From NCBI GenBank assembly GCA_964016885.1, contig OZ024740.1, forward strand, positions 87,854,001 through 87,918,000: a DNA stretch of 64,000 nt. Reading direction: 5' to 3'. This document shows positions 11,951 through 55,231 of the stretch, one piece after another; positions within the stretch are counted from its first letter, which is position 1; each line of letters opens with the position of its first letter. The position numbers were made by a program, and so were the translations under genes. This stretch comes from Eledone cirrhosa (lineage: Eukaryota). The notes under the pieces were generated by a model. The model did no database searches. It worked only from the letters and a program-made list of their open reading frames with translations, and was not told the DNA's origin.

Positions 11951-12135
11951 AGTGCGGGTGAAATGAATTGAGCTTAGCGGAAAAGTCTGGATACGGCGTG
12001 GTAGGGTTGGAAAGTGCTCTACTACGGGGGTAGGAGCTAGATAACGAAGGAAATGTGGTAAGGAACCAGGTGGACCATAACGCAACAAAGTACTCAATAC
12101 TTGAGGTAGTAGAGTGGGTAATAGGAACCAGTAAG

Positions 12136-12229
12136 ACCCCGACAGCTGAGCTCAAGCCGTTTCGACGGCTAATTCTGGACTAAATGAAAATTTATCCTGG
12201 TATTTAAATAGCCGATCTTCTCAAGGGGT
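12136..12229 (-). ncRNA. Type I hammerhead (family A) in PLE1 5' pLTR
   Basis: Same fold as 8567-8660, stem II gatcggcta/tagccgtc. Confidence 0.8.
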
Positions 12230-12609
12230 AATTCCATATATGGTCAAAGTGATTGTCAAAAATCAGTAGTAATTCTGTGGTCGCAAATTAGTAGGGGAGA
12301 TGGTGGCTAAACCTGCCAGTAGGAGAAAGAGGGGAGGGGGTGGAGTAGACCCAATCAAGCGTTTGTAGTGCCAGCTACAGCTGGGCATGAGGTCAAAGAA
12401 GATACAGGGGAGGGGGAGGGGGAGGAAGTCGGAACGGTAGGTAGAACAATGGGGGGTAGAAATATAGCTGGCACTACAAACGCTTGATTGGGTCTACTCC
12501 ACCCCCCCTCTTTCTCCTACTGGCAGGTTTAGCCACCATCTCCCCTACTAATTTGCAACCACAGAATTACTACTGATTTTTGACAATCACTTTGACCATA
12601 TATGGAATT

Positions 12610-12703
12610 ACCCCTTGAGAAGATCGGCTATTTAAATACCAGGATAAATTTTCATTTAGTCCAGAATTAGCCGTCGAAACGGCTTGAGCTCAGCTGTCGG
12701 GGT
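12610..12703 (+). ncRNA. Type I hammerhead (family A) in the inverted pLTR
   Basis: acccc TTGAGAA gatcggcta..tagccgtc GAAA cggcttgagctcagctg TC|ggggt; predicted cleavage after 12698. Confidence 0.8.
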
Positions 12704-13719
12704 CTTACTGGTTCCTATATATATATATATATATATATATATAAGTATCTTAAAGAGGTAATTCTGTTGTATGAGAATCTCCAAAGAATCGAAACAGAAT
12801 TAAATTTGGAAATTTCCCTTCTAATGAAGAATATAACTTTGGTATCTGAAAGCATTGTACGTAAAAACTCACAGGAATACACAGACACGGACGCACATGC
12901 ACACACACACACACACACACACACACACACACACACACACACACACACACACACACACACACACACACACACATACACACCACATATATATATATATATA
13001 TTCTTACTTTTAGCTTTGTGTAATTACGTACATTGAATATGCACAGAATAAAGGACTCAATACTGTTTCTGAAGTCAAAATAACGTTATGGTGACTGTTT
13101 ACTTTAAATTATCGCTGATAATAGGTTTACATTATATTGTTTGCATCGGCAAAACTAACAGACATACACACACATATAAGACCAACACGGAAAAGAAGCG
13201 AAGACAAACATGGAGGACAACCTATATATACATTTTTGCGATTCTGTCACAACATGTAAAGAGAGTGTAGTTTGACTACCTCGTACTATACCTGTCTCTC
13301 TACGTCTGCTGCCTGCGTGAATGTATGTGTGTGTTAAAAGAAGGAAGGGGATGATGAAAAAACTACTCTGTGTGTGAGTGTATGTGTACGTGTGTGTAAA
13401 AGTATGTGCGTGTTTTTGTGTGAATGTATGTGTGTGTTTGTGTGAATATATATGTGTGTGTTTGTGTGTATCTCTCGTAGCATATAAGTATATGAGTGAA
13501 TCAGTGTCTAATATGGTTATTTAGTGTACATGTTTATATAAGTGTGTGTTTAGTTTGTAGTTTGTATACATGAGTGGCGCACACACAAACCAACGTACAC
13601 ACACACACACACACACACACACACACACACACACACACACACACACACACACACACACACACACACACACACACACACACACACACACACACACACACAC
13701 ACACGACTCCAAAGATTCT

Positions 13720-14420
13720 AACATAAAATGCCCATTACGAATATCTTTTCGAATGTAGATCAAGGCGTTGAATTCTGGAGCGTGGCCGAATTTATAAAAA
13801 ACTTTGATTTTTCTTCTTTTTTCTCTCTCTACCCAGGAGAGATGCAAAATGAAACCACCTTCAGTGGCAACCGAAGGAGGAAAGAGATAGGGAGCTCAAG
13901 TATCGTTTACGGCACGGTTTTAGTTGTCGCATGATGTTGCTGTCAGTAGTCTTATTTTTATGAACTTCTTTGTTGCGATATATTGATTCGTTTTCGGTGC
14001 AACATTTCTTGTTCATCCCATAACATTTTGACATAACATATCCTTTTAGAATGTAGATGATCCTGATGAATTCTCCGATGTTCTAGAATTCATTACTATA
14101 TTAAAGAATAATAAGTTCACATACACCTTTGTGTTGATAGGATGCTGCTCCAATTGTTTATTGGAATTTTTTCCGTGAGTCTTTCTTCGGGTGGCGATCT
14201 TGAAATCACCGATGAAGAGTTTGTGGTCTATCTAATACCTATCTTAATGATGAGAACATCTTCTTGTCCCGTTATTGAGTGATCGTGTGGTCAAGTACGT
14301 ATCCATACTTTGGGTGCCGCTTCATCAACGTAATTTTGAAGTTGGAGTTGGTGTTAACCCAATAAAAATTTACTTCCTTCTACACAATCCAAGGCATTTT
14401 ATAACTGTGGAAGCCCATCT
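13720..14420 (-). mobile_element. Old RTE-like LINE relic (end of APE domain and linker)
   Basis: Frameshifted fragments LGLC.., RHPKYG..LDHTI..RDKK, DHKLFIGDFKI resemble the APE C-terminus of the RTE at 36382-37200. Confidence 0.5.
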
Positions 14421-52824: not shown

Positions 52825-53345
52825 AGTATTAAGGATACTATTTATGGTTATGTATATACTAAAACCTTTTATAGTTATATATATTTTAAACCCTAAATAG
52901 TGAAAGACAGTAATTTATTACTATCTTATTACCAGTAAGATAAATAGCACAATGTAACAACATCAGTTGTTTTACAGAGCAGTTATATAGAAATTACATG
53001 AATCAAAGTTCTGTTTAAATCTTTTATTTGCTTACAATTGTTTCTTCCAAACCGAGGTTTGGAGTCTTCGGAGCAATTATTCAGTGATTTTTTACATACT
53101 TGACCTCCTTTTCAACACAAGAGACATATAGAAACATATGTATATATTGACCCATTATTATAATGGATGTCAACCCACTGTGGGTCAATATATACATATG
53201 TTTCTATATGTCTCTTGTGTTGAAAAGGAGGTCAAGTTGTAAAAAATCACTGAATAATTGCTCCGAAGACTCCAAACCTCGGTTTGGAAGAAACAATTGT
53301 AAGCAAATAAAAGATTTAAACAGAACTTTCATTCATGTAATTTCT
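52825..53345. mobile_element. Family D non-coding fold-back insertion with two hammerheads
   Basis: 52987-53154 inverted relative to 53180-53345; second two-ended copy at 56630-56925. Confidence 0.85.
53258..53306 (+). ncRNA. Minimal type I hammerhead with CCGAAGA core (family D)
   Basis: ttgct-CCGAAGA-ctccaaacc(tc)ggtttggaa-GAAA-caattg-TA|agcaa; minus copies 53028-53076 and 56671-56719. Confidence 0.72.
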
Positions 53346-53387
53346 ATATATATATATATATATATATATATATATATATATATATAT

Positions 53388-53542
53388 ATAACGAAGGAAA
53401 TGTGGTAAGGAACCAGGTGGACCATAACGCACCAAAGTACTCAATACTTAGGGTAGTAGAGTGAGTAATAGGAACGAGTAGGACCCCGACGGCTGAGCTC
53501 AAGCCCTTACGACGGCTAATTCGGGGTCCTACTCGTTCTTAT
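53388..53542. mobile_element. Two-ended PLE1-family mini-insertion
   Basis: aacgaaggaaatgtgg...gacggctaatt / cggggtcctactcgttcttat. Confidence 0.85.
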
Positions 53543-55023
53543 ATATATATATATATATATATATATATATATATATATATATATATATATATATATAGGG
53601 CCTCAAAGATTTAGTAAGTAGGAAAAAGCATAAGACCCTACGAGCACCAGGAAATGTTGAGGCTCAATATGTAGAATGTGGGTAGGAATTTTATATGGTG
53701 TACCCAGTATAGACTGTATATAAGTGACGGACTTGCATATCAAACAGTGCCTTTCTGAAAAGCTCAGTGAACACCCATCTGACTTTAATGAAATATCATA
53801 ATTATGTTTTAAGGAATTGAATAAATAAAAGATTACACACACACACACACACACACACACACACACACACACACACACACACACACACACACACACACAC
53901 ACACACACACACACACACACACACACACACACACACACACATATATATATATATATTTAGATATGTATATATATATATAAATATAGCAAAGGTAAAAATA
54001 TATAAAATTAGCTAAATGTGTTTATATATTATCGGTCTAAAGAAAAAAGAGATTTTATTTAATGGAAGACTCTCCTGGCGTATATCGACGTATGAGGGTG
54101 TATATATATATATATATATATATATATATATATATATACACTTACATATATATATACAACTTACATACATACATATATATATATATATATATATATATAT
54201 ATATAAACACCTGGGCTTCCGCATCGTTTCCGTCTGCCAAACTTTCCGTTTCAAGGTATTGATCAAGGTATAAATTATAGGACTTCAATGTCTGAAACAA
54301 TAAGTTAACAGCCACATCTGAAATAGTAAAATATACTTTCAGAGTTGTATTTGTTTGGCAAGAGACTTGATAAAATATAATTGAACGCACTATAAATATA
54401 AAATGATGAATAGACTGTTTGCCAAATACATTAAACCAGTCTATCGTCACTTCAAAATAAATAACATAATTAGTATATAAGATATACCATCGGAAGAACA
54501 ATTAAGAAACGCAATAATGGTAGATAATAATTGTATTCCAACAATATCCATCTGATAGTCAAGCCATTACACTTCAAACACTCACTATGACCCACCATCA
54601 ACATTTGCTTCACGCTCTTCACTTTGTTTTTCTCTGCGTGGACTACACACACACACACACACACACACACACACATATATATAAATATATATATATATAT
54701 TATTAAAGAAATGACAACTCAAACACAATGATGCGAAAACACAAAGTATCTCGCTTAGATATATATATTATATATTTTTTAATTGAAAGTTAGAAGCATC
54801 AGCGTTGACTGACTATGAAGATTGTCTAATATGTTGGATATATAAACCCCGGAGGCGGAAATATTCGTACAATACTGCCCGTGGGACTGAAACCTATCAC
54901 ATGCCGGTGTGGGTTCGAGTCCCAACGTTGATAGTTCTAACTTTCAATTCAAAAACTTCCTATTACTTAACGTTTCTAAAAATATACATATATATGTATA
55001 TATATGTATATTTCTATATGTAT

Positions 55024-55231
55024 ATAGGAAAAGGTATGACCCCGACGGTAGAGCTCAAGCCGTTTCGACGGCTATTTCTGGACTGAAATAGCCGGTAGAA
55101 ATAGCCGTCGAAACGGCTTGAGCTCTGCCGTCGGGGTCATACTTTTTCCTATTCCCACTCTACTACCCTAAGTATTGAGTACTCTGGTGCATTATGGTTC
55201 ATCTGGTTCCTTACCACAATTCCTTTGTTAT
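55024..55231. mobile_element. Two-ended PLE1-family hairpin insertion
   Basis: ataggaaaaggtatgacccc...ctatttct / agaaatagccgtcgaaac...tttgttat. Confidence 0.85.

Follow-up and report, generated by a model that had tools for sequence, protein, structure and literature searches.

Two paired ends next to copies of a predicted hairpin in Hydra-clade Penelope-like element insertions of Eledone cirrhosa

Penelope-like elements (PLEs) of the Hydra clade have been described as carrying a short single open reading frame (ORF) and a hammerhead ribozyme motif in their pseudo-long terminal repeats (pLTRs), as using (TA)n as a target, and as having an inverted, 5'-truncated copy together with a tail on one end (PMC8557442). 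The Penelope families of Adineta vaga show a comparable layout, with two direct pLTRs, an adjacent inverted pLTR, a tail on one inverted pLTR, and palindromes at the junctions (PMC3846280). The inverted pLTR with a tail on one end, which an initial annotation of the DNA studied here had treated as established, is indeed in print (PMC3846280, PMC8557442). In the present work we analyse a 64,000-nucleotide (nt) stretch of the Eledone cirrhosa genome (assembly GCA_964016885.1, contig OZ024740.1, positions 87,854,001 to 87,918,000; hereafter the window). It is an AT-rich, animal-type DNA dense in (TA)n, and it holds a full-length element of this type, PLE1, together with short insertions (minis) made of the pLTRs of PLE1 and of other families.

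The in vitro work on PAc, a Poseidon-clade PLE from Anolis, described two internal start sites of the reverse transcriptase (RT) that bound the tail, with both strands of the target being cut and extended (PMC11167929). The target was AT-rich, RNA with an uncut ribozyme served as substrate and its cleavage was not needed, and a protein dimer was predicted (PMC11167929). For the hammerhead RNAs of PLEs a religated circular template was proposed (PMC4209133), and both non-LTR retrozymes and PLE hammerheads are known as non-autonomous, pLTR-derived repeats with type I hammerheads, again with circular templates proposed (PMC4209133; bioRxiv 10.64898/2026.07.22.740005). The one-sided tail, the two RT starts, the priming by both strands and the uncut ribozyme are all already in print, and most of what the initial annotation inferred is precedented. 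A twin-priming model for PLE inversions was not found in the literature searched, subscription papers and supplements being outside that search. Twin priming itself is known from L1, for which Ostertag and Kazazian are said to have reported in 2001 that both target ends prime on the RNA, leaving an inverted arm and short microhomology. In L1 the first primer uses the poly(A) end, the position of the second is variable, and there is hardly any overlap between the arms.

The insertions in the window have two arms placed head to head, one ending at a site which we call A and the other at a site B, and a copy of the same motif lies just 3' of each end. We put at roughly 55% the probability of the following reading: in these Hydra-clade PLE insertions, whose two ends each stand 2-6 nt before a copy of one predicted hairpin, both broken (TA)n ends prime reverse transcription, one at each hairpin. 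Positions with a sign are counted from the predicted hammerhead cut between GUC and GGGGUC, with +1 at 12140 in the 5' pLTR and at 8571 in the 3' pLTR of PLE1; counted from this cut, end A is at +20 (..ttc(c/t)tat) and end B at +98..100 (..gttat). The order of PLE1 is inverted arm, 5' pLTR, ORF, 3' untranslated region and 3' pLTR, with end B of the full element at 8472 and end A at 12718, and with arms extending to -326 and -237:

8472..12718, reverse strand: PLE1, a full-length Hydra-type Penelope-like element between TA runs; three pLTR copies 98-99% identical
8472..8897, reverse strand: 3' pLTR, whose site B end abuts (TA)n; contains the hammerhead and hairpin 1 (8520-8546)
9797..11950, reverse strand: ORF with RT and C-terminal GIY-YIG, motifs RWR, DKT, CxCx5C, CxxC and CxH; one in-frame stop at 11252-11254
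12041..12466, reverse strand: 5' pLTR, internal; site B at 12041 continues here toward the ORF and is not an insertion end
12136..12229, reverse strand: predicted type I hammerhead, compensated U3-A8 core (UUGAGAA...GAAA...GUC), cut between 12141 and 12140, found with our own descriptor
12465..12718, forward strand: inverted arm covering -237..+20, its site A end abutting (TA)n; 2 nt (TA) shared with the direct arm

A BLAST search with the pLTR against the window located eight insertions of the PLE1 family, of which seven, the full element included, are two-armed with the 3' ends outward. The other six two-armed insertions, to which no strand is assigned, and the single-armed copy are as follows:

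24202..24350: mini, A left (-4..+20), B right (-27..+100)
24379..24557: mini, B left (-42), A right (-33), internal deletion at about -1..+12
25495..25636, forward strand: single-arm copy of the PLE1 family, ending at B, without an A arm
37373..37510: PLE1-family mini, A left (about -36), B right from about +27, at hairpin 1
44800..44966: mini, A left (-42), B right (-41), shortened to +62..67
53388..53543: mini, B left (-38), A right from -2/+1, which is the predicted cut
55024..55231: mini, A left (about -42), B right (-36), templated duplication at the junction

Every one of the seven two-armed insertions has one end A and one end B, one of the B ends being shortened (p=0.008 under random end pairing). 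The shortened B end, that of the mini at 44800, stops at a second gttat-like site, and the junction of this mini at -41/-42 is a nearly perfect palindrome. A second element, PLE2, has A and B in 4/4 two-armed insertions, plus one single arm, and four further families with hammerhead-like motifs have a short and a long end in 6/6, which gives 10/10 for the five families other than PLE1. Over all six families in the window the pairing is A with B in 17/17 insertions (p=8e-6 under random pairing, assuming that the insertions are independent).

The same rule was looked for in G001, a 12-Mb assembly from which 25 stretches (268 kb of animal DNA) had been picked for their PLE content. Both ends are present in seven two-armed insertions there: six are A+B, in one of which the arms are separated by about 300 nt of unrelated DNA, and the seventh is A+A; together with the window, A+B was found in 23/24. 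G001 is listed as a bacterium; numerous contigs in it consist of animal DNA and carry at least ten Hydra-type pLTR families, of which one is nearly identical to the published coral Hydra-2_Amil. A lone B arm in its contig C121 (3751-3900) has its 5' end at the 5' edge of hammerhead stem I, adjoining TA. The pattern of the minis gave no match in a scan of metagenome contigs, and no relatives were found in viral contigs.

These counts bear out the two fixed, non-randomly paired ends that the initial annotation had proposed for the PLE1 family (7/7 there, 17/17 with p=8e-6 in the window, 6/7 in G001); the shortened second end it had suspected at 44800 is present too, with B at +62..67. Its list of copies holds for the seven two-armed insertions and missed the single B arm at 25495-25636. 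The position 12041, taken there as the limit of the element, turns out to be the internal border of the 5' pLTR on the ORF side, the true B end being at 8472 and so beyond the range that the annotation had stated. The ends do point outward as claimed, though not always into plain (TA)n: several flanks are impure TA or TA/CA mixtures. The claim of a variable inversion point holds in so far as all six PLE1 mini junctions differ; the arm ends of the minis are, however, clustered, with 9/12 at -27..-44. A transcription start near -42 was considered for this cluster, and the divergence of subfamilies in stem II could also explain it. The ends are offset by 80 nt, the junction is variable and the sequence is that of a retroelement pLTR, on which grounds a miniature inverted-repeat or other DNA transposon with terminal inverted repeats was rejected.

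The feature that the two ends have in common is a predicted bulged hairpin of the form RCUC-stem-loop-stem-YY-GAGYACU, which in PLE1 is present as two copies downstream of the 5' pLTR cut:

12089..12115, reverse strand: hairpin 1 (ACUC...GAGUACU) with a compensated first pair, 5 nt after site A (12121)
12013..12037, reverse strand: hairpin 2 (GCUC...GAGCACU), in the internal 5' copy only, 3 nt after site B

Ends A and B are thus 5 and 3 nt 5' of their hairpins in PLE1. For PLE2, whose hairpins are at 22379-22427 and 22319-22337, the distances are 2 and 3 nt. A distance of 2-6 nt was seen in about 18 family-ends, a number obtained from 59 rows after duplicates and low-complexity rows had been dropped by eye, and from a screen in which the motif was required. 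When the motif was not made a condition, the hairpin was present at 7/7 informative sense 3' ends (those with an internal copy in the same locus), 7-11 nt past the start of the TA, with a variant last letter in one. Identity between the start sites and the TA run extends over 1-8 nt, in most cases 3-5. The programmed sites of the initial annotation are in this way substantiated, with a hairpin 2-6 nt 3' of each end and a TA-like identity of 1-8 nt at the start.

A wider comparison used 97 related loci, which yielded 40 distinct sequences long enough to examine downstream of a sense hammerhead. Of these, 32/40 contain GCTC...GAGC or ACTC...GAGT as a pair, versus about 4% in shuffles or random windows. 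With the strict pattern RCTC-N-GAG(C/T)(A/C/G)CT, the 28 sequences not cut by TA had two copies in 15 cases, one in 9 and none in 4. The copies are 59-90 nt apart, the second being shortly before the ATG in relatives, and they are found in sense orientation 95 times versus 4 in antisense. The start of a TA run is always either upstream of hairpin 1 (+32..61, 7 rows) or downstream of it (+104..118, 6 rows). The fifth pair, formed across the 2-nt bulge, is C-G or U-A in 44/45, while the other registers give 1, 1 and 5 of 45. Local pairing at this fifth pair is possible in 30/32 versus 9/32 for cross pairing; a pairing of the two hairpins with each other, which minimum-free-energy folds had suggested for two relatives, was rejected on this ground. 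Such folds fail to yield two local hairpins reliably, so the structure rests on the covariation, whose counts come from related sequences and were made without a tree. Both points weigh against the reading favoured here, as do several ends that fit the hairpin poorly: no RCUC/GAGY hairpin is seen between the ends of family 5, the hairpin is degenerate in families 3, 4 and 6, the shortened end at 44800 is 37 nt before hairpin 2, and in one locus (L011) the TA run follows hairpin 1 by about 10 nt, a possible exception.

The motif can also be recognised in published sequences. Two published Hydra consensus sequences contain it, and that of Hydra-1_Ajap has it twice, starting only 2 nt upstream of the first copy. 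The main text of PMC8557442 makes no mention of hairpins or of the motif, and a duplicated hairpin was not found in the literature searched, which excluded subscription papers and supplements that might describe it. The rule of paired hairpins for the two ends appears to be undescribed; the pairing of the ends itself holds across more families than first reported.

Sequencing reads allow the ends to be seen beyond the window; 4 of 11 runs were mapped to the pLTR, and the end counts come from two restriction-site-associated DNA (RAD) sets. The largest loose ends flanked by TA, among those listed, are 12041, which is B (8870 and 9636 reads), and 12121, which is A (3444 and 3020 reads); smaller listed ends at 12054 and 12130 are apparently these two ends in diverged subfamilies, and other TAT sites within the tail are hardly used. 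As a further point against the favoured reading, B-end reads outnumber A-end reads by about 2.5-3 to 1, a ratio biased by the RAD cutting at AATT. The RAD libraries end at an AATT within stem II (12174; more than 7000 molecules per run), for which reason pairs are not countable, and these ends also confound, in X9/X10, the fall in depth beyond -40. In three read joints the length of the shorter side is the exact distance to A (51, 55 and 61 nt), while, as we infer, the other arm must run past A; these joints speak for the favoured reading. A joint linking sites B and A of opposite strands, seen in 31 and 8 reads with 2-3 starts, corresponds to tail-to-tail neighbours with little TA between them.

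One could ask whether the pairing is simply inherited, with the minis copying a few inverted masters or being collapsed longer insertions, and with the ends being merely UAU sites that match the TA. The clustering of mini arm ends at -27..-44, the existence of subfamilies, and the use of another gttat-like site at 44800 would agree with this. The six PLE1 mini junctions nevertheless all differ, the rule holds in six families of the window and in a second host, the other TAT sites of the tail are hardly used, and the ends follow the hairpins over the approximately 18 family-ends. We regard such an origin as very improbable.

Under the favoured reading, the protein of the element, likely as two copies, would grip both hairpins, and its endonuclease would cut both strands of the (TA)n. 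Each DNA 3' end would then pair with the UAU/UUA immediately upstream of one hairpin, from where it would be extended toward the 5' end of the RNA, and the two cDNAs would be joined where they stop, with a 0-2 nt overlap or a short insert. Since the cDNAs would be joined at arbitrary stops, a variable inversion point is expected. Both the 5' leader and the 3' pLTR contain the sites, so that most events would copy the short leader only, which would explain the excess of minis; the read depth of the mini zone is roughly 100-300x that of the ORF side. Full-length copies would require tandem read-through or a circular RNA. A stronger version, which we hold only tentatively, is a programmed twin priming in which the duplicated hairpin loads two RT sites on one RNA, each given one (TA)n end, and the insertion is built from both sides.

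Twin priming under the favoured reading fits all arm geometries, both polarities and the mini excess. The polarity of PLE2 is the reverse of that of PLE1, its direct arm ending at A where that of PLE1 ends at B:

19209..22618, reverse strand: PLE2, second Hydra-type element; direct arm ends at A2 (19209), inverted arm 22436-22618 at B2
45046..45326: PLE2 mini, A2 left (-184), B2 right (+47..+116), arms non-overlapping
49961..50074: PLE2 mini, B2 left (+73..+116), A2 right (-46), arms non-overlapping
56437..56567: PLE2 mini, A2 left ending about 7 nt short of A2, with a non-TA flank; B2 right from +29

The arms do not overlap on the RNA in 3/4 PLE2 insertions (45046, 49961 and 56437), in an insertion of G001 (C61 10633), and in read joints connecting +20..+64 with -28..-45. 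Non-overlapping arms support twin priming and cannot be made by a simple fold-back. This is a difficulty for a single priming followed by snap-back, in which a single TA end serves as primer (or an antisense template primes itself), the resulting cDNA bends back to act as its own template, and the second end is resolved by the endonuclease beside the hairpin, recognised there in single-stranded DNA and not in RNA; later deletions would have to be added to obtain such arms. The in vitro finding that both tail boundaries are RT start sites (PMC11167929) also speaks against it. In print, nonetheless, PLE inverted repeats are read as products of self-priming (PMC3846280) and the tail as a result of endonuclease resolution (PMC8557442), and near-symmetric junctions (44800, 24379, 55024 and C575 of G001) are what snap-back would leave. 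In 4/7 PLE1 cases the A arm lies clearly within the B arm, as snap-back expects, and A+B would follow naturally if B primes first. On balance we consider this explanation rather unlikely, though it is the main and a serious rival. Junction microhomology, whose inspection the initial annotation had listed as a check, is 0-2 nt, or replaced by short inserts, in 11 junctions inspected by eye; this is at chance level and does not discriminate between mechanisms.

It is worth pointing out that most PLE1 arms overlap on the RNA, unlike those of L1-type twin priming; the PLE1 sites also differ from those of L1 in being both internal and fixed. Overlapping arms need the same RNA stretch to be copied twice, and so need strand displacement or a second RNA. 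An alternative in which both target ends prime on two separate RNAs held in an asymmetric protein pair, with the hairpins still setting the sites, would explain the overlap without strand displacement, as well as the A+A case. It needs an additional rule for the 23/24 A+B insertions, and several long arms stop at or near site A or hairpin 1 (37373, 56480, the PLE2 direct arm, and C716 and C61 10683 of G001), as expected on one shared RNA; the excess of arms stopping at A (about 5-6/21, by eye) is not significant. Two separate RNAs seem improbable to us.

The overlap is one of several points that tell against twin priming on a single RNA. The near-palindromic junctions of 44800, 24379 and 55024 fit snap-back equally well, and the Poseidon enzyme showed no difference between strands in its start site in vitro (PMC11167929). 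The insertion at 10607-14416 of C575 in G001 is a clear A+A, two single-arm copies are present in the window, and families 5 and 6 contribute one insertion each, from which their A and B were themselves defined. A symmetric palindrome at 47365-47489 (75%, old, between short TA stretches), which may be a MITE or an A+A insertion, was left out of the count. The mechanism has moreover been inferred from sequences and reads. The twin priming of the initial annotation thus stands as the reading that accommodates all arm geometries, the non-overlapping ones included, and as one drawn from the arrangement of the insertions. A dimer prediction for a relative (P0011, residues 1-495, two copies), run from the single sequence, had a score of 0.00 and carries no weight in either direction.

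The same annotation had the template span an uncleaved ribozyme, a claim that is borne out only in part. The descriptor found the same predicted hammerhead in all three pLTR copies of PLE1, whereas Rfam missed it and returned only chance matches to miRNA hairpins below threshold. Insertion arms cross the predicted cut and the read depth over it is flat, as the claim would have it. The whole hammerhead, however, is spanned only by the full PLE1 element and by the longer PLE2 arms (-46 to -184); the arms of PLE1 minis end at -2..-44 and do not reach the 5' core half (-84..-78). A circle that was cut and then religated would look the same over the cut as an uncleaved RNA, and the arms ending at or near +1 (53388, 24202 and C61 10633 of G001) may derive from cut RNA. 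As for the core, the predicted variants are U3-A8 in PLE1 (12136-12229) and family 6 (40664-40760), A4 in PLE2 (22454-22507) and C4 in family 3 (about 53262-53305, by eye).

The direct arm of PLE2 (19209-22435) runs from one site A to another, a length very close to one unit, and in C716 of G001 the element (74-2630) directly follows a TA run, with its 5' end 1 nt inside hairpin 1. These boundaries at site A fit an RNA end, a block by protein, or one turn of a circle at A. PLE2 is flanked by a direct copy of about 60-110 nt (19073-19135 versus 22646-22719, 96.6%), which resembles an unusually long target duplication.

PLE1 itself, judged by its sequence, is a Hydra-clade PLE, with the motifs, the hammerhead and the (TA)n target of that clade, and as an element is of a known kind. 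Its frame of 2.15 kb belongs to the class below 3 kb, with YQC..YIG at the C-terminus and no N-terminal endonuclease. We used the published motif definitions of the clade (PMC8557442), and like its members PLE1 has RW(K/R), DKT, the CxCx5C linker, and CxxC/CxH around the end of the endonuclease. The RT motifs are KRLRWR (K to R) and SDKTGN, where the consensus of the relatives is RMRWK and ADKT; those of the linker and endonuclease are CNCPDRSIC, CNLCSEE and LLNKKDELVTACKH, and a CCHH was judged absent by eye. The protein has 711 relatives at E<=1e-40, the best ones about 40-45% identical, and, as an indirect link to the clade, a protein profile matches the ORF of a G001 family whose pLTR resembles Hydra-2_Amil. 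Pfam gave no match to the PLE pieces.

Compared with the described systems, several differences emerge. The tails given as 30-40 bp for PLEs (PMC8557442) compare with about 60-90 nt here and as much as about 160 in family 3, with boundaries tied to the copies of the motif. The starts of PAc lie in an AC-rich stem-loop inside the ORF and are said not to match the cut DNA (PMC11167929), while those of PLE1 precede a duplicated hairpin of the leader and are identical to the (TA)n over 3-5 nt in most cases. The main text on PAc offers no one-of-each or inversion model, and no strand bias was seen in that work (PMC11167929). The Adineta vaga families were explained by self-priming on an antisense template and have a 31-bp tail and visible target site duplications (PMC3846280). 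Unlike the arrays of retrozymes, the PLE1 minis are single inverted units without the 5' half of the ribozyme and are not in tandem.

The following insertions of the four further families, again without an assigned strand, have the long end on the left and the short end on the right:

52826..53345: family 3; a copy at 56633-56924 is in reverse order
24643..25424: family 4; a copy at 55261-55499 is in reverse order
23398..24088: family 5, a tandem hammerhead unit of about 413 nt
40258..40810: family 6, with a U3-A8 hammerhead

The tandem unit of about 413 nt, found at 23580-24088 and 39778-40190, has a hammerhead, no ORF, and short and long ends, and is retrozyme-like. Elsewhere in the window, the flanks of TA runs are mirrored at 6538-6635, 18345-18522 and 18937-19135, with inverted copies 94-100% identical; these could be fold-back events of TA hairpins or assembly artefacts. 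An open non-LTR RT frame of 1015 amino acids at 130-3177 on the reverse strand (Pfam RVT_1), with a C-terminal CCHC and a restriction-like endonuclease motif, is presumably R4/Dong-like. A broken long interspersed element at 33815-37422 on the reverse strand, with pieces of AP endonuclease and RT and with a PLE1 mini on its 5' side, is one that we take to be RTE-like.

PLEs are the closest relatives of telomerase RT, and the origin of their tail and inverted pLTR was named as open by papers of 2021 and 2024; the duplicated hairpin makes this question testable. The hairpin also gives a sequence rule for the boundaries of Hydra-clade elements and of their non-autonomous copies in the genomes of marine invertebrates. 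If the programmed twin priming is true, the tail and the inversion of the pLTR would be the direct print of a two-site ribonucleoprotein, with the leader, about 130 nt long, acting as a portable loading signal.

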